12,950 nucleotides of DNA from Promethearchaeota archaeon (GTDB lineage Archaea > Asgardarchaeota > Hermodarchaeia > Hermodarchaeales > Hermodarchaeaceae). Each line of letters opens with the position of its first letter. Within the stretch, counting starts at the first letter, position 1. The stretch is from the NCBI GenBank assembly GCA_048938295.1, contig JBHLMI010000043.1:1-12950 (forward strand), written 5' to 3'. Made by a program: the position numbers and the translations under genes. Under the pieces are notes generated by a model. It made no database searches. It worked only from the letters and a program-made list of their open reading frames with translations, and was not told where the DNA came from. Shown in pieces: positions 372 to 12,391 of this stretch.

Positions 372-1229
372 ATGGAACTGATACAAGTCAGTAAATCTAC
401 TTGGGCCGTCATCGACGGTTCAACCTTCGGAAATGTTGGATGCATTCGAATACCCAAGCACATTGCCGTCATCGATACAGGCATGACCCCAGAAATCGCT
501 AAAGAATTTCATACCCGAATTCAACAAGAAATCGGAACACCAATTACTGAGGTTATTTTGACCCACTATCATTCGGACCATGTATTTGGTGCCCAAGAAT
601 TCCAACGATATCCACTTATTGCCTCATTGAAGATGGCTAAATTATATCCGGACCTGCTTAAGGCTCATTGGTCACCCAAGGCAATAGCAGAAATGCAAAG
701 GACTTATGCAACAACTGATCCTACACTCAGTCAACAACTTGAAAATCTCCGTATTATTTCTCCCACCAGAACTTTTTTGGACACATTATATTTGGGAGAC
801 AACCATGAGATTGAAATCCGCCATACTGGTGGTCATACTGCTGGTCATTCCGTTATCCATTTCATTCCGGAGCGTATTCTCTTTGCTGGTGATTTAGTCT
901 TTTGTCAACAATACCCATATGCTGGCGATTCTACTAATAATCCCCAGGCATGGATACAAGTCTTGGAAGAAATCCTCGAAATGGATATCGAAACGATTGT
1001 TCCAGGGCATGGTCCGTTATGTAATAAAGCTGAAATCCGATTGCACCTAGCGTATTTCAAAGCCCTTGAACAATGGATTTGTAACAAAATAAAATTAGGG
1101 GCAACCCATACCGAAGTTCAACAAGACAAGGAAACTGGACCAACTCCGCCTTACCAACTGAAAGCAGAGAGACGGCTTGAAGCAACCATTCAGCGTTGGT
1201 ATAACTTCTATTCGGAACTTATAAACTAA
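372..1229 (+). CDS. Metallo-beta-lactamase-fold hydrolase (cyclase/CphA-like subgroup), substrate unknown
   Basis: Motifs VIDTG, THYHSDH (HxHxDH), HTGGHT, FAGDL, PGHG; AAGGGAG just upstream of the ATG. Confidence 0.9.
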   Translation: MELIQVSKSTWAVIDGSTFGNVGCIRIPKHIAVIDTGMTPEIAKEFHTRIQQEIGTPITEVILTHYHSDHVFGAQEFQRYPLIASLKMAKLYPDLLKAHWSPKAIAEMQRTYATTDPTLSQQLENLRIISPTRTFLDTLYLGDNHEIEIRHTGGHTAGHSVIHFIPERILFAGDLVFCQQYPYAGDSTNNPQAWIQVLEEILEMDIETIVPGHGPLCNKAEIRLHLAYFKALEQWICNKIKLGATHTEVQQDKETGPTPPYQLKAERRLEATIQRWYNFYSELIN

Positions 1230-1391: not shown

Positions 1392-2459
1392 ATGAAAAAG
1401 GAATCCGATACAATTAGTCAAAGAGTCGCAAATGAACTCTTTACACAACACAGACCTGATGACTGGGACAATCTTCAAGAACGGCAATTGAAACTCAAAC
1501 GCCAACTTTGGCGAAATATGGTTGGCAACACGATTTTTCTTGAAGCACGAAATCTTGCACCCATTATTGGCTGTGAACGAGTCTATCTAAAGTTTGAAGG
1601 AAGTAATCCAACTGGAACTCAAAAAGACCGAATAGCAATGGTCTTGGCTGATCACGCCGCCTGTAAAGGCTTCAATGAGCTTACAACTGCAACTTGTGGA
1701 AACTTCGGTGTTGCCCTAGCCTTTGCCGCAAAACACTACGATCTCACTGCCCATATTTTTATTCCTAAAAAATATGATGTTCCTAAAGATCGGCAAAAAA
1801 GAATGGAAGCCTTTGGTGCCCGAGTCACACTCGTGGATGGGTATTATGAGGATGCTGTTGAGCATTCTATTAATTCTGCTGCAGAGCAAAATTGGTTTAA
1901 TGCTAATCCTGGATCAAGTGATATCCCCGAGTTATCAATTACCGCCTATAGCGAGATTGCTTATGAGATCTTTCGTGATCTACGTCGTGTACCCAACTAT
2001 ATTTTCTGCCCAGTTGGGAATGGAACGACATTCGCGGGAATCTATGCAGGGTTCAAAAGATTACTTCTAATGGGCAAAACAATGAATGTTCCCAAAATGG
2101 TAGCTACAAGTACACGCCGAGGTAACCCCATCATTAAATCATTTAAAGAAAATAAAACCACCATCGCCGATTTAAAGCCCGAAGAAATCAAAGAAAGTAA
2201 AATCAATGAACCTTTGACAAACTGGCGTGCCTTCGATGGGCAACTAGCATTAGACTCGATATACGAATCATTAGGGTTTGGAGAGTATGCCTCAGATTCG
2301 AGAATGATCGAGTTCTCAAAGCTTGTGCGATCTGAGGAAGGTCTAAGCGTGCTTCCAGCTTCCGCAAGTACACTTGCGGTCATGGAAACGCTTGGGCGTG
2401 AAGGATTTGTCGTAAAAGGGACCTATGTAGCAATCCTTACAGGACGGGATTTTTCCTAG
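1392..2459 (+). CDS. Fold-type II PLP-dependent enzyme, threonine synthase-like
   Basis: YLKFEGSNPTGTQKDR (Schiff-base Lys), TATCGNFG, PVGNGTT phosphate loop, EGLSVLPASA, terminal ILTG; TAAGGA upstream of the start. Confidence 0.85.
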   Translation: MKKESDTISQRVANELFTQHRPDDWDNLQERQLKLKRQLWRNMVGNTIFLEARNLAPIIGCERVYLKFEGSNPTGTQKDRIAMVLADHAACKGFNELTTATCGNFGVALAFAAKHYDLTAHIFIPKKYDVPKDRQKRMEAFGARVTLVDGYYEDAVEHSINSAAEQNWFNANPGSSDIPELSITAYSEIAYEIFRDLRRVPNYIFCPVGNGTTFAGIYAGFKRLLLMGKTMNVPKMVATSTRRGNPIIKSFKENKTTIADLKPEEIKESKINEPLTNWRAFDGQLALDSIYESLGFGEYASDSRMIEFSKLVRSEEGLSVLPASASTLAVMETLGREGFVVKGTYVAILTGRDFS

Positions 2460-2504
2460 GGCTAACTCTCTTAATCCAGTCTTATAGTCTAACAGACTCT
2501 GAGT

Positions 2505-3074
2505 TCATTCATGATCCCGAGAATTCTCATGTATCACTCTACTATTATCAAGGTCAAGTCGCATAGTGAGATCCCCCTGCTCTGTTCGAGTGATTGCTTC
2601 GAACCCGTGTTCCTCATAAAAGTGACGTAACGGTATTCCCTTCTCGTCCTTTTCTTCCGTATCTAGCACAATTGCTTGATAAGTTCTATCGCGTGCTCGA
2701 TTGATAACAAATTGCAAAACTATATCACCAATCCCTCGTCCACGCTGGCGAATGGCTATCGTATCTAGATAGAAGGTTGGTGGTTCAAAATCTGGCAGTC
2801 GATAGCCTAAAACCAGGATCTCCGGGATTTCATGGCTAACAACGAAAAAGAAGAGCACTTCTGGATTGTTCAAGCGTTCAATGATTTCTTGACGACTATA
2901 ACGTAAATCAAACCGGAAATCTTCTTCCTCGAGGATTTGAAACCAGCGAAAACATCGTTCATCACACTCTTTTGGCAAAACAAGCTCAAGTTCTCCAGAA
3001 TATTTCATGGACAGTTCGGCTTTCAACTGGAGCCATCTTTCCTTTTCCTCGTTTTCAGGAATTTGCCATATCAT
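2505..3074 (-). CDS. GNAT-family N-acetyltransferase
   Basis: YLDTIAIRQRGRGIG (acetyl-CoA motif A), IVLDT, LRHFYEEHGF (motif B); GGCGGG upstream of the ATG. Confidence 0.85.
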   Translation of the reverse strand: MIWQIPENEEKERWLQLKAELSMKYSGELELVLPKECDERCFRWFQILEEEDFRFDLRYSRQEIIERLNNPEVLFFFVVSHEIPEILVLGYRLPDFEPPTFYLDTIAIRQRGRGIGDIVLQFVINRARDRTYQAIVLDTEEKDEKGIPLRHFYEEHGFEAITRTEQGDLTMRLDLDNSRVIHENSRDHE

Positions 3075-3133
3075 TCGAATTCCCGCCTTAGGTCTTTGAT
3101 TGGTTATCTGCTACACTCGTTGTCCCAAACCTA

Positions 3134-4159
3134 TCACAGTTGAAGATTGTATCTGGCACATGCTGACTCGAGCAATCGTCGAATCAAATCATCATAAGTG
3201 TAACCTGTTTTCATAGCCATATAAGGATAGAATGAAAGGTCATTTTCAATAGTATCAAAATCCATTCCTGGTAATGGATTCACCTCAAGAAAGAAGATTT
3301 CGTCTTGTTGATTCATTCGAAAATCAATTCGAACGAAATCACGAATATTCAGAGCGTTCCAAATTTTTATTGAAATCTCTTCTAATCTGTTTCTCAGGGT
3401 TTTAGGAATTTTCGCTGGACAGATATAGTGCTCAAGGGAGTCAAGGATAGTCTTTGCGCGTTGTCCAAAGACCCCTTGAACCTCTGGAAATTGAGAGAAA
3501 TTAATTTCAAGTACTGCTAGCATTTCCGGGTTTTTACCAGGTCGTCCTAACAGGCCTGTACTAAATTCTCTGCCCTCAATGAATTGTTCGATTAGGATTG
3601 GCTGTGAATATTCAGTAAGCATAGATGCAAGCTTGGCTTTGAGTTGACTGAGATTTGAAACAACATTGTCTTCATTGATTCCCATTGAAGAACCTTCTTC
3701 GAGGGGTTTCAGAATATATGGGTATCCTTGTTTGACCTCTGAAGCTTGTTTGAGGGTGGAACAGACAAAAAATTGAGGGGTCTGGATTCTATGGTACATC
3801 AAGATTTTTTTGGTCCATGCTTTGTTGAGCCCAACCGCCGTTGTAATTACATTTGAGCCCACGTATGGAATATTGAGCATTTCAAGAATGCTTGGAACAT
3901 GGGATTCACGGCTATCACCTCGCAATCCTTCGGTCCGATTAAAGACTAAATCTGGTTTAATTCGTTTCAGTGTCTCGACAAAATTCTCATCAGCTTCGAT
4001 GAATACGTATTCATGACCAGTCGCTTCAATGCCATGTTTAATGAGTTCAACTGTATGAGGTGGATCATACTCAACCTGAAACTCAGTCTCCTCACTCCGA
4101 GTATTCAACATCAGTGCAATTCGCATCTTCTTCCCCTTCATAGGCTTTTTAGACATCAT
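3134..4159 (-). CDS. D-alanine-D-alanine ligase-like ATP-grasp peptide ligase, substrate uncertain
   Basis: LEMLNIPYVGS, NKAWTKKIL, YPYILKPLEEGSSMGI, LIEQFIEGREF, VRIDFR, LEVNPLPGM. The track start is 4180; ATG 4159 (1 nt after the upstream stop), 4156 or 4126 are more likely. Confidence 0.85.
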   Translation of the reverse strand: MMSKKPMKGKKMRIALMLNTRSEETEFQVEYDPPHTVELIKHGIEATGHEYVFIEADENFVETLKRIKPDLVFNRTEGLRGDSRESHVPSILEMLNIPYVGSNVITTAVGLNKAWTKKILMYHRIQTPQFFVCSTLKQASEVKQGYPYILKPLEEGSSMGINEDNVVSNLSQLKAKLASMLTEYSQPILIEQFIEGREFSTGLLGRPGKNPEMLAVLEINFSQFPEVQGVFGQRAKTILDSLEHYICPAKIPKTLRNRLEEISIKIWNALNIRDFVRIDFRMNQQDEIFFLEVNPLPGMDFDTIENDLSFYPYMAMKTGYTYDDLIRRLLESACARYNLQL

Positions 4160-4160
4160 G

Positions 4161-5522
4161 TTAGATTTCAAAGGATGCAATTTCTTCCTTAAAAATCGAC
4201 AAGACTTGTGGTTTCAATTCCTTTGGAACTGAAATTGCATCATAGATTGAGACAAAGGTTTTAACAAGCTCTTCTTCTCGTTCCTTTGCTTCTTCAAAAA
4301 GTTTCCCCGTTCTAAAATCGTCAACTAACCCACCTTGAACTCCTTTCAATGAGGCTAAATAGAACGCAAACAGTTGCTCATCACGTCCCACTTTCGTATG
4401 AGCATAAGTGAGTGTTATCGTCTTCCCTCCAAACAATGTGAAGAATTGCTTATACGAGCGTTCAAGCATATTCACACGAAGCCCAATACTTTTTGGATCA
4501 ATCCCACTCGCTACACACATTAGATACATCTTAGCACAAATCGAGCAGTTATGACACCAACGGTAATCCCGCCCTGCCTCAGTTTCGGTAAAACAACTCA
4601 TTTGGTACTTCGCAATTTTTGGATAACGGTGAGCAAGTGTTCGTTGAATCATCATATCCATTAACGGTTCAATCAAACTCCCTGTGCGAACAGAACCCCC
4701 TGAAAACATCTGAGAGATTTGATCAATATGAATCGTCCACAGATGGGATTGATCGTAACAAGGATGAATAATCCATCTTTCCTCGGCATCCATATACGAG
4801 GCCGCTGCGGTTTGCTCATTCCCAAAAAGAAAATACTTTCCCTGGTCTGCATAAGCGAAAGGAATGAATTCAAGGGCATATTCTGTTGTTTGTAATCCCC
4901 ACCCTAATTCCGTTATGGGAAGCCCTAGATATGGATAATCACGGAGTTTCCCAGTTTCATGTTGTAGGATTCGCATTTCTTTTCCAAATTCTTTTTTGAA
5001 TTTCTCGGCTAGCTTCGTTTTATGTTTCTCTTCATAGGTCATACTGGCTTCGACAACATAGACCATTTCAGGATCAAGACCAATTTCTTCCGCCACAGCG
5101 TAAGTTAAGAGGCTATCTTTCCCAAAACTCACCCCGACAATCGCTCGAAAAGGTGAAGCTACCGGTTCAGGATCAGGGCTAATAATGACCGAATCCTGGA
5201 ATTGATAATCGATATTATAGAATCTACGCACGATGTCATCTGTTGATGTTCCGTCAACAACAGTACATGAGGGGATGTCCTTCAGGAAGTTTTGGACGAA
5301 GTAGGGTTCAAGGAGTGGGCGACCTGAATAATATGTGATAGCATTTTTCTGAAGAACGAGAGGCAAATGCATCGTGGTTGCGAGGGCTAAGTTATCCTTG
5401 AGTGCAATGCGGGTTTGGGTTGGTGTAACTTCCCAAACTGGCTTCGGATAGATTATCGGATAGCTACTGTCGCGAAATCGTACTGCTATACCATTGTCTG
5501 TGCATTCGGAAAAGATTTCCAT
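4161..5522 (-). CDS. PP-loop (adenine-nucleotide alpha-hydrolase) protein with C-terminal Cys cluster, MurL peptidyl-glutamate epimerase-like
   Basis: AIVGVSFGKDSL (SxGKDS at 5129-5112), FGNEQTA, SLIEPL, QMSCF, RWCHNCSICAKMYL (CxxCxxC at 4556-4536), about 453 aa. The track start is TTG 5543; ATG 5522 is the alternative used here. The PP-loop call is strong; the MurL likeness is by-eye motif order. Confidence 0.7.
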   Translation of the reverse strand: MEIFSECTDNGIAVRFRDSSYPIIYPKPVWEVTPTQTRIALKDNLALATTMHLPLVLQKNAITYYSGRPLLEPYFVQNFLKDIPSCTVVDGTSTDDIVRRFYNIDYQFQDSVIISPDPEPVASPFRAIVGVSFGKDSLLTYAVAEEIGLDPEMVYVVEASMTYEEKHKTKLAEKFKKEFGKEMRILQHETGKLRDYPYLGLPITELGWGLQTTEYALEFIPFAYADQGKYFLFGNEQTAAASYMDAEERWIIHPCYDQSHLWTIHIDQISQMFSGGSVRTGSLIEPLMDMMIQRTLAHRYPKIAKYQMSCFTETEAGRDYRWCHNCSICAKMYLMCVASGIDPKSIGLRVNMLERSYKQFFTLFGGKTITLTYAHTKVGRDEQLFAFYLASLKGVQGGLVDDFRTGKLFEEAKEREEELVKTFVSIYDAISVPKELKPQVLSIFKEEIASFEI

Positions 5523-5563
5523 GAATATAACCAAACTTATCAAAGATCACTTGTTGATAACTG

Positions 5564-7270
5564 CTATACAGCTGCCTTTAATCGTACTGGCGCAGAACGA
5601 TCGAGATACCGTTTAGATACCGGATAGTTTTCAAAGGCGATCGTGTAGGAACTTTCGAAATATTCACGAATCTCCTTCTCAACGACCTTTGCTAAATCTG
5701 GCTCTGGCGTTGCATCAATCCAATGAGTGCTCCCTTTTGGTGTTGCTATCATTTTCCCTTCTTTTTGAACCACAATTCCATCCTTAATAGTCATCCAAGC
5801 TTGGCTAAGTCCGTTCACCAGCTTATCAGGATTTTTCCCATAATCTTCCTTGGGGTCGATGTCATAGATGGCAATATCCGCATCCGCACCTGTGCCAAGA
5901 TGGCCTTTCATCGGTAAGCCCAATATTTTGGCGGGGCCAGCGCGAGTTCCTATGATGTAGTCCTGTAGCGACCATTCTGTTTCAAGTGCAGGAAGCACCA
6001 TGCGCTTCTGAGCAGATTTTCTAATATCTTTGAACGTCATATCACGCGCCTTTCGACTCATCAGCCATGCGGCAATCCAAGGATAATTGATGAAGGTTCC
6101 CGCATTGGGATGGTCTGTGCTGGGAATGACACGCCACGGATCGTTTACCAAGAGGGCAATTTCAAGGCCGATTCCCCATTGGATTGCATTCACTCGGGAA
6201 CTTTTCTTGAACACATAGGGAACAACACCACCGCCGCATTCAATTTCAATGTCATCGTTAACCCAGCGGCTCCCACTAATCCCTCTTAAAATCCACTCCC
6301 AGGGACCATCTGCTGTCATAGTAGTGGTGTCAGAAAAGACAATTTGCCCGAGATCACAGCTGACATTCTGATGGTTCTTAAGGTAATTCGCAATGGGTTC
6401 ACTACCTGACTGAAAAGTAATGAAACTGTCTCCTCCATAGGAGTGGAATTGAATGTGGGTCATATGCAGATTAAAGCCAGATTCCCGTTGGATTGCTCGA
6501 TTTTCTGCAAGCTTCATCGTTTCAATGGTGATACCCGTATTACCAGGTCGTCCTAGCATATTTGCGTGCAAGTGAAGCGAATGGGGGAGCCCTAAACGTT
6601 CTGCGGCTTCAATTAGGGTTGTAATGGTATCACGAGCCGTCACGTCAAAACACGAAATCTGCTCATCCAAGCTCTCAACATTACCACCCCACGACCAATC
6701 GCACACTCCTGCGGGATTCACTGCCTTCACAGCATACCCCTTAGTTGCTTGCAGCATCCAAGCTACAAAAGCTGCGGCTTTATCATATTCCTTCTCACGT
6801 GCATAATCCATGATTTGCACATGATTCCCAAAGAGTGGAAACATAATTTTATCATGTGGCTGAATTTCTCCCAGCTCCTCATGGGTATGACGTGCAACAA
6901 TCCCTGCTGTAGCCGCCTCCGTCACAAAGGTGTAGCCCATCTGAGAAAACTTGTAACCTGTCATGAATGTTGGAGGAACACTTGCCCAAACTCCTGCTCG
7001 GCAAATATCCGAATAAGTGTAGGGGTCCATTCGGGATTGATCACAACGGAGCACACGACCCGAATCAACCTTCGGTGTTGCGAGGTGAGCATGAATATCT
7101 ACACCACCCGCCACTACCATTCGGTTTTCAGCATCAATGATTTCAGCGGATTCAGGAATAACCGAATCGACGATCTTTCCATCTTGAATAGCTAAATCCA
7201 TAATTTCGAAAATTTCGTTTTTGGGATCGACGACGAAGCCATTTTTTATGACAATATTACGCGTTTTCAA
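5564..7270 (-). CDS. fwdA: Formylmethanofuran dehydrogenase subunit A (amidohydrolase subunit)
   Basis: GGVDIHAH, GYTFVTEAA, HTHEEL, GYAVKAVNPAG, LGLPHSLHLHANMLGRPGN, HMTHIQFHSYGG, TMTADGPWE, DIEIECGGGVVPY, AIQWGIGLE, STDHPNAG; 568 aa; TTG start with GGTGGG upstream. Confidence 0.92.
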   Translation of the reverse strand: MKTRNIVIKNGFVVDPKNEIFEIMDLAIQDGKIVDSVIPESAEIIDAENRMVVAGGVDIHAHLATPKVDSGRVLRCDQSRMDPYTYSDICRAGVWASVPPTFMTGYKFSQMGYTFVTEAATAGIVARHTHEELGEIQPHDKIMFPLFGNHVQIMDYAREKEYDKAAAFVAWMLQATKGYAVKAVNPAGVCDWSWGGNVESLDEQISCFDVTARDTITTLIEAAERLGLPHSLHLHANMLGRPGNTGITIETMKLAENRAIQRESGFNLHMTHIQFHSYGGDSFITFQSGSEPIANYLKNHQNVSCDLGQIVFSDTTTMTADGPWEWILRGISGSRWVNDDIEIECGGGVVPYVFKKSSRVNAIQWGIGLEIALLVNDPWRVIPSTDHPNAGTFINYPWIAAWLMSRKARDMTFKDIRKSAQKRMVLPALETEWSLQDYIIGTRAGPAKILGLPMKGHLGTGADADIAIYDIDPKEDYGKNPDKLVNGLSQAWMTIKDGIVVQKEGKMIATPKGSTHWIDATPEPDLAKVVEKEIREYFESSYTIAFENYPVSKRYLDRSAPVRLKAAV

Positions 7271-8635: not shown

Positions 8636-9748
8636 ATGTCAAAAATGGATCAAAGTGTCAAATACGGCCTTGTTATCGTCATCATTGCAATCATAGTCGC
8701 AGCAGGCGCGATTCTCGGAATAAGCCTCCTGACGAACCCACCGGCTGAGCCACCACAAACCGGCGAAGTCAATGTTCAGGTAATCAATGATGACAACACA
8801 TTCAACCTCAATTACTCAACTCTACTCACTCTAACCTCAATTGAAGGAAGTTCATCATACCAAAATCGATTTGGTAACTGGCGCGGAATTGGAACCTATA
8901 TTGGTGCACCCCTGTCTTCGATTGTTGGGCTTGTTGGAGGAATGGACAACAACGACCTCATCAGGGTCAATGCAACCGATGGTTATTCCCAATACTACAC
9001 CTACGACAATCTCTACCCCAATTCCTCGTTTAGTACTATACAAGGTGATCTGGTCCTTGCATACTCCTATAATGAAACAACACCTACCTCATGGGCTGAT
9101 GGTCCCCAATCAGCTTTCATTCCTGTAGATGGGGCCTTTAGCAACGAGGATGCCAACCAGACGACTCATCCTGCGTTCTTCTTCGGCAGCGCTGGTGCCC
9201 GATGGGTAAGAAATGTTGCATCGATTGAAGTCATCCATGATGTCTACATTGACAGTAAATTCCATGTGACCATCGTCGACGGAGACGACGAACGTGATGT
9301 CTATCTTGTAGATCTCGCTCTAATGAATAACCTAGAAGGATTTACAGGTTATCAAACAGGGGGTTTGTCTTGGCCAGGAAATGGCACATACAGGGGGGTT
9401 CTAATCTCAAAAATTGTTGAATTGGTCACCACAATCGAGGCCGATGATATTGTCAAAGTTATTGCTGCTGACGGATATAACCAGTCCTTTACTCATTACA
9501 ATCTCTATCCGAATTCAACGATTTCCCTTATTCAGGGTGATTTGATCTTGGCCTATGTTTTTAATGGTACAATGGTTACTGACTGGACTGAAGGTCCAAA
9601 GATAATCTTCTTGGCTCCTGATGGAGCCTACAGCAATACGGATGCGAGTCTCACAACAGAGCCCGCCTTCTTCTATGGCAGTGCAGGATCTCGATGTGTG
9701 AAAAATGTCGCAATTATTGAAGTTATCCGTAATGGGTTCCCTCCCTAG
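8636..9748 (+). CDS. N-terminally membrane-anchored extracellular protein with two tandem sulfite-oxidase/Moco-binding-like domains; probable ECF accessory binding protein
   Basis: Hydrophobic aa 11-32 and Pro-rich linker, then two repeats with the TYxG...A(T/A)DGY...LAY..N....GP...GxRxV(K/R)NV..IEV pattern typical of oxidoreductase molybdopterin-binding domains; 9 N-x-S/T sequons. Confidence 0.7.
   Translation: MSKMDQSVKYGLVIVIIAIIVAAGAILGISLLTNPPAEPPQTGEVNVQVINDDNTFNLNYSTLLTLTSIEGSSSYQNRFGNWRGIGTYIGAPLSSIVGLVGGMDNNDLIRVNATDGYSQYYTYDNLYPNSSFSTIQGDLVLAYSYNETTPTSWADGPQSAFIPVDGAFSNEDANQTTHPAFFFGSAGARWVRNVASIEVIHDVYIDSKFHVTIVDGDDERDVYLVDLALMNNLEGFTGYQTGGLSWPGNGTYRGVLISKIVELVTTIEADDIVKVIAADGYNQSFTHYNLYPNSTISLIQGDLILAYVFNGTMVTDWTEGPKIIFLAPDGAYSNTDASLTTEPAFFYGSAGSRCVKNVAIIEVIRNGFPP
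8768..9727 (+). repeat. Intragenic tandem domain duplication, about 156 aa units with a 164 aa period
   Basis: aa 45-200 versus aa 209-364 share GTYxG, DGYxQ, NLYPNS, IQGDLxLAY, WxxGP, DGAxSNxDA, PAFFxGSAGxRxVxNVAxIEVI. Confidence 0.9.
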
Positions 9749-9768
9749 TAATTGAATGATGTGAAGAA

Positions 9769-10821
9769 ATGAACAGCTCCGCTTCCACCTATTATTTCAC
9801 AACCCGTGATCTTGTCACGATCGCTGTGCTCAGTGCACTGGGCGGAGCGTTAAGCACCTTTGTAAGTTATATCGGGCAGCTCTTTAACGCCGCCGTCGGT
9901 ACTCCATTCGGCGCTGGACAGTTTCTGAGTGGCTTACATGTGTTCTGGATTATTTTGGCTGCTGGCTTAATCCGCAAAACCGGTGCTGCGACTGCAACTG
10001 GTCTGCTCAAAGGATTTGTCGAATTCTTCACAGGAAGCACGCATGGAATCATTGTTGTTCTAATCTCTCTTATCCAGGGTCTCATCATTGACATCGGTTT
10101 CTATGCAATTAAACAACAGGATTCTCTTCCAATTTGGACATTAATCGGAGGTTTCGCAGCCGCCTCCAATGTCATTGTTTTTCAGCTGTTCTTCTTCTCT
10201 GGGGCCCCCCTGATATTCTTGGCCCTTCTCGTCATTTTAGCCTTTGCATCTGGGATCATCTTTGCTGGTTATTTTGGGCATGCTACCACCCTCCTTGTCT
10301 TAGAATCCAGAATTTATCGCAGAGCTGCTACAATGAACACTGTAACGCCAAAATCCCCATGGCGACGTCTTGGTCCTTATCGTCTTTCTGCGCTAATCTT
10401 TTTGATTGTGATTGCCTTCGGAGCGAGTCTTTATGCTGTCTTTGTATGGCGTCCTGTTCTTGATTCTCTCAGCTGCGAAGTTGTGGGCCAAGTATCCCAT
10501 CCATTCCGGTTTTCATATTTTAGCTACTCGAGTCAAGAAGTGACAATCGAAGCAGAACTCATCGGCTCGGTCACCCATCTTCCTCCGCAAAATTACACTG
10601 GGATACCTCTGCCTGTCATCCTTGCTGACGCTCAACCCGCCACATCTGCGACTACGCTTCAGGTTATATCCTATGATGGTTATAGGGCTACCTTCAATCT
10701 CACCGCGGTACTAAGCGATTCAGAAATCATCCTGGTAATCGATGATGGACTCCGTCTGGTAGCAAAGAATTACCCAGGATGGTTCTGGGTGCAGAAGGTC
10801 GTCAGCTTTGTCATCATTTAA
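9769..10821 (+). CDS. ECF transporter S component fused via an extra TM helix to a C-terminal Moco-binding-like domain
   Basis: TRDLVTIAVLSAL (AxxxA in TM1), RKTGAA loop, about 6 TM helices, basic linker RIYRR..WRR, a seventh TM, then EVVGQV..P...NYTGIPL...SYDGY...GLRLV...GWFWVQKV. Confidence 0.8.
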   Translation: MNSSASTYYFTTRDLVTIAVLSALGGALSTFVSYIGQLFNAAVGTPFGAGQFLSGLHVFWIILAAGLIRKTGAATATGLLKGFVEFFTGSTHGIIVVLISLIQGLIIDIGFYAIKQQDSLPIWTLIGGFAAASNVIVFQLFFFSGAPLIFLALLVILAFASGIIFAGYFGHATTLLVLESRIYRRAATMNTVTPKSPWRRLGPYRLSALIFLIVIAFGASLYAVFVWRPVLDSLSCEVVGQVSHPFRFSYFSYSSQEVTIEAELIGSVTHLPPQNYTGIPLPVILADAQPATSATTLQVISYDGYRATFNLTAVLSDSEIILVIDDGLRLVAKNYPGWFWVQKVVSFVII

Positions 10822-12391
10822 CGACTCCTCTACCGCATCAGTTCCACTAATTCGAATTTCGAATTTAACCTATACCTATGAGGGAAGCGACCAGCCTGCT
10901 GTACGTGATATTAATCTGGCACTTCATCAAGGCGAGTTCACTATCCTTGCAGGACCCAGTGGTTGTGGTAAAAGCACCTTAGCTCGTTGCCTCACAGGAT
11001 TTATTCCTCATGAATATCTGGGCAAATTCCAAGGCACCATCACAATCCGAGACCAAGATACCCGCTCTCTTCCAATTCATGATTTAGCCAAATCAGTCAG
11101 TCTTATTCAACAAGATCCCGACAGTCAATTTGTGACACTCAACGTCACTAACGAAGTTGCATTTGGATTGGAGAACTTCCAGCACTCTCCAGAAACAATT
11201 GAACCACGCATCGAATGGGCACTAAGAGCAGCAAATGCAGAAAATCTGCAATCTCGTAACACCCACACCCTCTCAGGCGGCGAAAAACAGAAAGTCATCA
11301 TCTCTTCGTTTATTGCACTACAGTCTCCCGTCCTTATTTTAGATGAGCCGACCGCTAGACTCGATCCTCAAACAGCAACGGAAGTTCTCACAACCCTCCA
11401 ACAATTGCATAATCAAGGTGCCACAATACTAGTAATTGAACACCGAATCCAACCCTTTCTCTCCTCCGCTTCCCGCGTCCTTCTTATGAATGAAGGAACA
11501 ATTACTTACGACGGTAGTCCAACCCAACTCTCAACAGATCCTGCACCCCTCAACGATTTGGGTGTGTATCTGCAACCATCAATCTTTTCGGAGGCTATTC
11601 AACAAAGGGCACAACCTGAAAGAGAAATATTGAGGGTTCGTGGCCTTACTTTCACTTATCCGCGGATTGAAGAACAGGTCTCTCCGCGTCCTGCCTTGGA
11701 GAATCTGACCTTCTCACTTCACCCAGGAGAAATTATAGCATTGATGGGTGCAAATGGGTCAGGAAAATCAACACTCCTCCTCCAGCTTATGGGCTTATTA
11801 GCACCCGATGCTGGAGCGGTTCATCTTAACCAACAGAATATCCATGCGCAACCAGTTTCTCAGCTAGCTCGTCAGATAGGATTCATTTTCCAAAATCCTC
11901 TCCATCAGATATTCGCCTCCACCGTGAAGGAAGAAGTGCTGCTTGCTACGAAACATCTCGGACTCTCCGAATCCCGGGAAATTGAACTCCGCGCAGAGCA
12001 ACTAATATGTAACTTTGGCCTCCTCAAGTATCAAGATCAATCCCCCTATACTTTGAGTCTGGGAGAGCAGCGTCGACTAACCATTGCTTCTATCCTGGTC
12101 CACAAGCCTCAGGTACTCTTACTCGATGAACCTTTCATTGGTCAGGATTATCGCAATGTGCATCGTCTCATGAGTGTCATCCGAAGTGAAGCTGCTCAGG
12201 GAACCACGGTGTTACTCGCCACCCATGATACAGCAATCGCTGAAACCTACTGCTCACGCCTTTTGTTCCTATTTGATGGGCGACTCCTCATCGACACTCA
12301 CGTTAAGCAAGGACTGGAATACCTTGCCCTATTTGACCAATCCAGAGTTAGCCTCGAACCAAGGTCGTTGGAGGTCGAAGCTGAAGAATGA
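10808..12391 (+). CDS. ecfA: ECF transporter ATPase with two fused ABC domains (EcfA-A' type)
   Basis: Walker A GPSGCGKST and GANGSGKST; Q-loops QQDPDSQF and FQNPLHQI; signatures LSGGEKQ and LSLGEQRR; Walker B LILDEPT and LLLDEPF; H-switches IEH and ATHD. The TTG start overlaps the S-component stop, so the exact start is uncertain. Confidence 0.93.
   Translation: MSSFNDSSTASVPLIRISNLTYTYEGSDQPAVRDINLALHQGEFTILAGPSGCGKSTLARCLTGFIPHEYLGKFQGTITIRDQDTRSLPIHDLAKSVSLIQQDPDSQFVTLNVTNEVAFGLENFQHSPETIEPRIEWALRAANAENLQSRNTHTLSGGEKQKVIISSFIALQSPVLILDEPTARLDPQTATEVLTTLQQLHNQGATILVIEHRIQPFLSSASRVLLMNEGTITYDGSPTQLSTDPAPLNDLGVYLQPSIFSEAIQQRAQPEREILRVRGLTFTYPRIEEQVSPRPALENLTFSLHPGEIIALMGANGSGKSTLLLQLMGLLAPDAGAVHLNQQNIHAQPVSQLARQIGFIFQNPLHQIFASTVKEEVLLATKHLGLSESREIELRAEQLICNFGLLKYQDQSPYTLSLGEQRRLTIASILVHKPQVLLLDEPFIGQDYRNVHRLMSVIRSEAAQGTTVLLATHDTAIAETYCSRLLFLFDGRLLIDTHVKQGLEYLALFDQSRVSLEPRSLEVEAEE

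Follow-up and report, generated by a model that had tools for sequence, protein, structure and literature searches.

MurL is, to our knowledge, the only characterised member of its fold. Its partner MurD2 adds L-Glu, and MurL then inverts the C-terminal residue unidirectionally while ATP is converted to AMP (PMC5808125, PMC8788868). The QueC family shares the PP-loop core and is recognised by the hallmark C(x)8CxxCxxC (PMC13329287). Here we describe a MurL-like protein and its gene neighbours from an Asgard archaeon. They are encoded in a stretch of 12,950 nucleotides, contig JBHLMI010000043.1 of the Promethearchaeota archaeon assembly GCA_048938295.1 (C13 in our numbering), which we refer to as the window. 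The genome comprises 2.52 Mb in 66 contigs and is 91.6% complete. An earlier interpretation, made from the DNA letters alone (the sequence-only reading), took the stretch to be archaeal. This is borne out: the closest public relative is a Hermodarchaeota (Asgard) metagenome-assembled genome (MAG; L013), which is syntenic with the whole window at 75-96% protein identity.

Positions 1392-5522 of the window encode what we tentatively read, giving it a little less than an even chance, as a self-contained module of four genes which makes a small N-acetylated, dipeptide-like metabolite and in which the residue that the ligase adds at the C-terminus is adenylated, and perhaps also epimerised, by a MurL-like enzyme. 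The sequence-only reading had described an operon of three genes at 2505-5543, i.e., a MurL-like epimerase, a Ddl-like ligase and a GNAT. Open reading frame (ORF) calls place all three there, co-oriented on the minus strand. The genes are real, yet the set was incomplete: a conserved gene for a ThrC-like pyridoxal phosphate (PLP) enzyme on the plus strand had been left out. The features are:

4161-5522, or to 5543, minus strand: predicted MurL-like adenylating enzyme with PP-loop and Zn-ribbon, 453 amino acids (aa) from the ATG at 5522
5112-5129, minus strand: PP-loop variant SFGKDS, residues 132-137 of the MurL-like protein, aligned to GGGKDS of MurL
4536-4595, minus strand: four-Cys motif C310-x12-C323-x2-C326-x2-C329, a presumed Zn site by alignment to the Cys motif of MurL
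3134-4159, or to 4180, minus strand: Ddl-family ATP-grasp ligase (PF07478), the true start likely being the ATG at 4126, which gives 330 aa
2505-3074, minus strand: GNAT N-acyltransferase, 189 aa (PF00583)
1392-2459, plus strand: ThrC-like fold-type II PLP enzyme, 355 aa (PF00291), convergent on the minus-strand operon

The 453-aa protein consists of an N-terminal domain (residues ~1-120), a QueC-like core (~120-340) and a C-terminal helical domain. From an alignment of 66 family representatives AlphaFold2 produced a model with a mean predicted local distance difference test score (pLDDT) of 95.9. When this model was compared by Foldseek with the Swiss-Prot models, the top three matches were the characterised MurL proteins A4X982, P0DQD8 and C4RJF8. 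Residues 2-444 are aligned to all three with template modelling (TM) scores of 0.71-0.73 and E-values of 1e-13 to 1e-15, at an identity of 12-14%. QueC, the competing candidate, covers residues 119-314 only (TM score by query 0.34). Structurally, the choice between MurL and a QueC- or tRNA-type PP-loop enzyme is thus one between a full-length and a core-only match, and MurL prevails. MurL and MurL-MurD fusion proteins are also among the matches in the AFDB clusters. The PDB yielded no match to a MurL structure; there the QueC-family proteins QatC, QueC and Cap9 rank best.

The sequence motifs tell the same story. As references we used six MurL orthologues from alphaproteobacterial genomes, the adjoining genes of which are MurD-like by N-terminal sequence, without confirmation by family search. 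Profile alignment of our family against these six by hhalign gave a probability of 99.2% (E 1.9e-19) over 300 columns, residues 122-441. All motifs listed in the sequence-only reading are present and in the order given: AIVGVSFGKDS (127-137), FGNEQTA (233-239), SLIEPL (282-287), SCF (309-311) and RWCHNCSIC (321-329). The MurL motifs which it had quoted for comparison come near the real ones; the consensus of the six orthologues reads VGGGKDS, MSNERSAN, FSLLRPLSE, TSCN and RWCGDCDKCRF, and in addition contains VNHQWSKS. Within the PP-loop, 24 homologues show no variation at S132, G134, K135, D136 and S137. The Cys motif SC...WCHNCSIC aligns to TSCN...WCGDCDKC of MurL in the hhalign comparison, and C310, C323, C326 and C329 are invariant in 66/66 family representatives. 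The NCBIfam MurL model (NF041275) is the sole NCBIfam match of the window protein, though a faint one (E 0.002, 16.7-16.8 bits against a cut-off of 700). The same model matches 49 of the 66 representatives, at best with E 3e-12; the alphaproteobacterial orthologues score 300-480 bits.

At the level of the PP-loop other enzymes are matched as well. SFGKDS also aligns to SGGKDS of TtuA, and together with weak matches to MnmA and QueC this might indicate a QueC-type or tRNA-modifying PP-loop enzyme the neighbours of which are unrelated to it. However, all of these matches are confined to the core or the PP-loop. A sequence-profile search of the PDB retrieved TtuA and MnmA at the PP-loop level only, and a Pfam scan at E <= 0.01 assigned the protein to no family, PF06508 included. 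The full-length matches are MurL, and the neighbours are co-conserved in ~70 to 77 of the 80 species surveyed below, also after rearrangement. We consider such an enzyme very improbable. Conversely, we are highly confident that the 453-aa protein is a member of the MurL superfamily.

It is not, however, a MurL orthologue, because it reaches 17 bits where the model demands 700, is separated by a long branch and has replaced invariant residues. In a maximum-likelihood tree ~4.5 substitutions per site part MurL from the whole family (support 100/100). The window clade forms one monophyletic subclade (100/100) within a large uncharacterised family of 329 clusters at 50% identity; the 483 close proteins are, every one, named "hypothetical". 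Where MurL has HQWSKS, SLLRPL and PFECVGE, the window protein has PCYDQSH, SLIEPL and GRDEQL. Of the stretches invariant in MurL, HQWSKS is gone, and so are the Cys of PFECVGE and the arginines of SLLRPL and SNER; except for the Arg of SNER, all of these are candidates for a role in catalysis or binding. In two of the shared active-site motifs a positive charge is removed (SNER to GNEQ and SLLRPL to SLIEPL). In a different part of the family, a distant MurL-like relative (27% identity; L009:1195-3815 and L010) overlaps the end of a seryl-tRNA synthetase gene by 4 nt. This context differs from that of the module, and other subclades may have other substrates.

The neighbourhood was scanned with one genome per species; 204 relatives were found and 80 loci kept, the partners being detected by tblastn. 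The Ddl-like gene adjoins the MurL-like gene in 77/80 loci, the PLP gene is present in 72 and the GNAT gene in 68. The sequence-only reading had asked for conservation of the gene neighbourhood in other genomes, and across these 80 species the genes are strongly co-conserved. Gene order is less rigid. In a clade at 47-53% identity the PLP gene is located upstream instead of downstream. Distant Asgard copies (E ~1e-100) have the order MurL-like, PLP, Ddl-like and a small ORF, the latter encoding a GNAT in L113 and a protein without Pfam match in L114. As the same set is kept through rearrangement of gene order, the four genes very probably act in one pathway. All-against-all clustering of the flanking ORFs of the 80 loci revealed no fifth conserved gene. 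Small ORFs of 25-99 aa near the module were not conserved either, so a ribosomally synthesised and post-translationally modified peptide (RiPP) or a carrier protein as substrate finds no support.

The module occurs in Thor-, Hermod-, Hod-, Heimdall-, Borr- and Odinarchaeota, in "Promethearchaeota", in two clades of Bathyarchaeia and in a few bacterial MAGs (Spirochaetales, Krumholzibacteria and others). Its occurrence is patchy: among 251 Asgard genomes sampled, 28 have it, and 3 of 15 within the own genus. Yet its proteins are 70-77% identical between Asgard archaea and Bathyarchaeia, which points to an accessory module passed on by horizontal exchange. One four-gene module of archaeal type, with 68-77% identity to the window, resides on a 729-kb contig labelled Actinomycetota (L024, CAVQRL010000018.1). 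Either this is a mislabelled or misbinned Bathyarchaeia contig or it documents a recent transfer.

The second member of the module, the Ddl-like ligase, is identified by PF07478 (124 bits, E 8e-36). It stays below every NCBIfam Ddl cut-off, the best score being 183.7 bits against 243. We compared 74 homologues using E. coli DdlB as reference. The DdlB residues for ATP/Mg and acyl-phosphate are invariant (K97, K144, E180, K215, R255, D257, E270, N272), and S150 and S281 are kept as well. By contrast, the specificity positions have changed in an invariant or nearly invariant manner (H63 to E, Y216 to T/S, L282 to F), and the N-terminal GGxSxEHEVS segment of Ddl is replaced. In DdlB, S281 and R255 bind the carboxylate of the acceptor. 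Their retention implies that the product of the ligase should end in a free C-terminal carboxylate. We read the protein as an amino-acid ligase of altered specificity whose product would carry such a carboxylate.

The sequence-only reading had derived translational coupling from a spacing of 1 nt between the MurL-like and the ligase gene. The junction is present in the DNA (TAA 4163-4161, C, ATG 4159-4157). The deduction is doubtful: 23 homologues start at the position of M12 (consensus MxIALxLNTR), which corresponds to the ATG at 4126-4124. The purine-rich AAGGGGAAGAAG stands in front of this ATG, and the distance from the stop of the MurL-like gene is 34 nt. Probably, then, the ATG at 4159 is not the real start of the ligase, and the spacing of 1 nt is a weak argument for coupling. 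In relatives the gap amounts to ~55 nt; in some bacterial and Borrarchaeal loci the genes overlap by 4 nt. A predicted complex of the MurL-like and the Ddl-like protein scored 0.32 (best control 0.00), with a pLDDT of the partners of at least 79 and a contact agreement of the runs of at least 0%, which is graded as weak support. Among 80 solved complexes 58 attained the mark applied to such scores, as did 2 of 110 mismatched pairs; a pass as low as the present one is more likely to be wrong than right, and we do not claim that the two proteins bind. An apparent natural fusion of both proteins, an 803-aa ORF (L112:1683-4094, G498:C12, the same contig as L050), carries unrelated sequence in place of the final 20 residues of its MurL-like portion. 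It is probably a frameshift or an assembly error and is not counted as evidence.

The PLP enzyme belongs to PF00291 and matches NF004996/PRK06381 with 371 bits, above the cut-off of 266; this cut-off was exceeded in none of 14 control reference genomes. It fails the threonine synthase model TIGR00260 (87.4 bits against 167.1). A canonical ThrC is encoded elsewhere in the genome (contig C61, 197 bits with TIGR00260), as are cysteate synthase and several CysK-like enzymes. The Schiff-base Lys is kept in NPTGTQKDR and the best PDB matches are ThrC. In place of the Asn-loop STGNT of ThrC we find TCGNFG, and the NPxRxEGQK segment is absent. A search of the ESM Atlas yielded generic "threonine synthase" clusters only. 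Judged by these motifs and scores, the automatic name "threonine synthase" for the PRK06381 protein is doubtful and probably wrong. The GNAT is ordinary by Pfam (PF00583, 28.6 bits, above the gathering cut-off of 20.7). It is the least conserved member of the module, with 25-60% identity across loci. Of the module as a whole, the homology and fold of each enzyme, the intact ATP and metal motifs and the co-conservation of four genes are observed.

Apart from the module, the same genome contains a cysteate synthase gene (TIGR03844, 516 bits) adjoining a gene for a PP-loop protein which resembles 3'-phosphoadenylylsulfate/adenylylsulfate (PAPS/APS) reductase (PRK02090, 205 bits; G000:C38:34534-36449; L101, L012). 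This pair hints at cysteate-derived sulfonate biosynthesis in an Asgard archaeon.

How could the four enzymes cooperate? From the homologies we infer the order of the steps, the adenylation, the epimerisation and the nature of the product. The PLP enzyme would start from a phosphorylated or beta/gamma-substituted precursor and supply or remodel an amino acid. The ATP-grasp ligase would couple an alpha-amino acid to the carboxylate of a donor, and the C-terminal carboxylate would stay free. The MurL-like enzyme would then adenylate this carboxylate (ATP to AMP and PPi) and, by analogy with the MurD2/MurL pair, invert the residue from L to D. Finally, the GNAT would acetylate a free amine. Adenylation of a carboxylate by the MurL-like enzyme is probable in our view; for the inversion the balance tips slightly to the negative. 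GNEQ, SLIEPL and the exchange of H63 to E in the ligase, an acid for a base, suggest a substrate which lacks the anionic groups of UDP-MurNAc-Ala-Glu and possibly is cationic. Considering that the set recurs in many sediment archaea without murein, its product is probably a small modified peptide. In its most specific form the proposal is that Asgard archaea and Bathyarchaeia possess a peptide epimerase of the MurL superfamily, driven by ATP, which together with the Ddl-like, PLP and GNAT enzymes makes an N-acetyl dipeptide with a D-residue, possibly a basic or non-proteinogenic one. We hold this form to be possible and somewhat doubtful.

A Mur_ligase_M search of the genome (91.6% complete) retrieved no Mur ligase, and a search for an Asp/Glu racemase was likewise negative. 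The genome search suggested by the sequence-only reading is not entirely empty: one Ala_racemase_N protein is encoded elsewhere, i.e., free D-amino acids may be available.

That last possibility is one of several points which weigh against the preferred reading. The identity to MurL is low, the branch is very long and residues invariant in MurL are lost; at ~13% identity and with such replacements, superfamily membership stands whereas the epimerase chemistry claimed initially is not established. The distribution is patchy, and the role of the PLP enzyme is left unexplained. Even for MurL the mechanism is unresolved, the proposed route leading via an acyl-adenylate (PMC8788868, PMC5808125). 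Finally, QueC uses the same core fold to form amides and nitriles, and QatC and Cap9 use it to conjugate proteins (PMC13329287). Adenylation of a carboxylate with subsequent amidation or ligation would suit a MurL-like fold equally well.

The last point leads to a different end of the same pathway. The MurL-like protein may be an amide-forming adenylating enzyme which couples the C-terminal carboxylate to ammonia or an amine, and the product may be an N-acetylated, C-amidated, uncharged dipeptide, a compatible solute similar to N-acetylglutaminylglutamine amide (NAGGN). NAGGN is reported by Sagot and colleagues (2010) to be made by Ngg, a GNAT plus ATP-grasp protein, and AsnO, a PP-loop amidotransferase. 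Three of the four enzyme classes of the module match this set. The QueC-like core with its Zn motif fits too, as QueC converts a carboxylate into an amide with ammonia and QatC/Cap9 establish amide bonds to protein N-termini (PMC13329287). A patchy, transfer-like spread among sediment organisms suits a stress or osmolyte module, and the MurL-specific residues are not conserved. On the other hand, the N- and C-terminal domains are those of MurL and not of QueC. Pfam and NCBIfam searches of the four module proteins revealed no Asn-synthetase-type amidotransferase and no glutaminase domain. NAGGN synthesis manages without a PLP enzyme, yet the PLP gene is conserved in 72/80 loci. On balance we rate amidation as rather unlikely, yet as the main and a serious competitor of the preferred reading.

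The altered specificity residues of the ligase permit still another view. Ddl-family enzymes normally take D-substrates, and the ThrC-like enzyme has an active-site motif which is not that of ThrC. Conceivably, the module produces an antimetabolite or specialised metabolite reminiscent of D-cycloserine or a dipeptide antibiotic. An unusual amino acid made by the PLP enzyme would be inverted or activated by the MurL-like enzyme and then ligated or cyclised by a D-specific Ddl-like enzyme, with the GNAT in the role of self-protection. That the GNAT is least conserved is often seen with acetyltransferases of the resistance type, and patchiness combined with high identity across phyla suggests a mobile accessory module. 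Against this, conservation around the module extends to no exporter, regulator or additional tailoring gene, and the literature searched contains no precedent. Moreover, MurL acts on an N-acylated C-terminal residue and not on a free amino acid (PMC5808125). An antimetabolite therefore appears improbable to us, and we retain the N-acetylated, dipeptide-like metabolite as the preferred reading.

The other genes of the window do not belong to the conserved module. Its immediate upstream neighbour is

5564-7270, minus strand: FwdA-like amidohydrolase (TIGR03121, 685 bits), outside the conserved module

The FwdA exception model gives 634 bits, less than the cut-off of 950, and no fwdBCD genes are found nearby. 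A link to methanofuran chemistry was considered and dropped: FwdA, metallo-beta-lactamase, DUF389 and energy-coupling factor (ECF) genes stand beside the module only in L013, a near-identical genome. At 372-1229 (plus strand) a protein with metallo-beta-lactamase fold is encoded, the best matches of which are sub-threshold and concern SoxH-related quinoprotein relay hydrolases; the conservation of the module does not extend to this protein. At 8636-12391 (plus strand) there is an ECF-type transporter operon, unrelated to the module, which encodes a duplicated ATPase and an S-component-like protein carrying the ABC_cobalt domain. In front of it a 370-aa protein is encoded which has a weak match to a GEGP diheme family and nothing else. 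An Rfam search of the window at E <= 0.1 matched no riboswitch or other RNA element.

The literature search returned no paper on archaeal MurL-like proteins or on the four-gene set. What is new, then, is a clearly delimited subfamily within the MurL superfamily, together with its set of partners and its host range. The large sister family (~330 clusters at 50% identity, all hypothetical) shows that the MurL scaffold is used well beyond cell-wall synthesis. Since the partner set is fixed and compact, its chemistry is directly testable by expression of four genes. Should the enzyme be an epimerase, Asgard archaea and Bathyarchaeia would deliberately synthesise D-amino-acid peptides; a dipeptide with a D-residue would mean that MurL-type chemistry occurs outside peptidoglycan synthesis, which would be a first, and that archaea devoid of murein make a D-amino-acid metabolite non-ribosomally. 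Should it be an amidating enzyme, a new compatible-solute-like pathway would be defined. Either way, four poorly annotated gene families, including PRK06381, acquire a pathway context.

Compared with the described systems, the window protein shares with MurL the three-domain architecture over its full length (TM 0.71-0.73). The PP-loop, the NE motif, S-L-x-x-P-L, the Zn motif SC...WCxxCxxC and the C-terminal helical domain all align. In both cases the gene adjoins that of an ATP-dependent amide ligase, the product of which ends in a free carboxylate. The differences are the nature of this partner, an ATP-grasp enzyme of the Ddl family and not a Mur ligase, the additional PLP enzyme and GNAT, the separate deep clade and an archaeal host without murein genes. 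The Ddl ligases (DdlB, DdlA, Van) have the PF07478 fold and the catalytic set in common with the window ligase, which lacks their peptidoglycan context. ThrC and cysteate synthase are fold-type II PLP enzymes with a Schiff-base Lys like the window enzyme; they differ in the Asn-loop and in the NPxRxEGQK segment which the latter is missing.

With NAGGN synthesis the module has the enzyme classes in common: a GNAT, an ATP-grasp dipeptide ligase and a PP-loop enzyme which adenylates a carboxylate. In the module these proteins are separate and not fused, the MurL-like PP-loop protein has no glutaminase domain, and a PLP enzyme is added. QueC, QatC and Cap9 have the Rossmann-like PP-loop core, a C-terminal Cys4 Zn motif and ATP-dependent activation of a carboxylate in common with the window protein (PMC13329287). 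The latter deviates from QueC by its spacing C(x)12CxxCxxC and by extra N- and C-terminal domains, such that the core (~119-314) alone is matched, and its module is set in a neighbourhood free of que, qat or cyclic-oligonucleotide-based antiphage signalling system (CBASS) genes.

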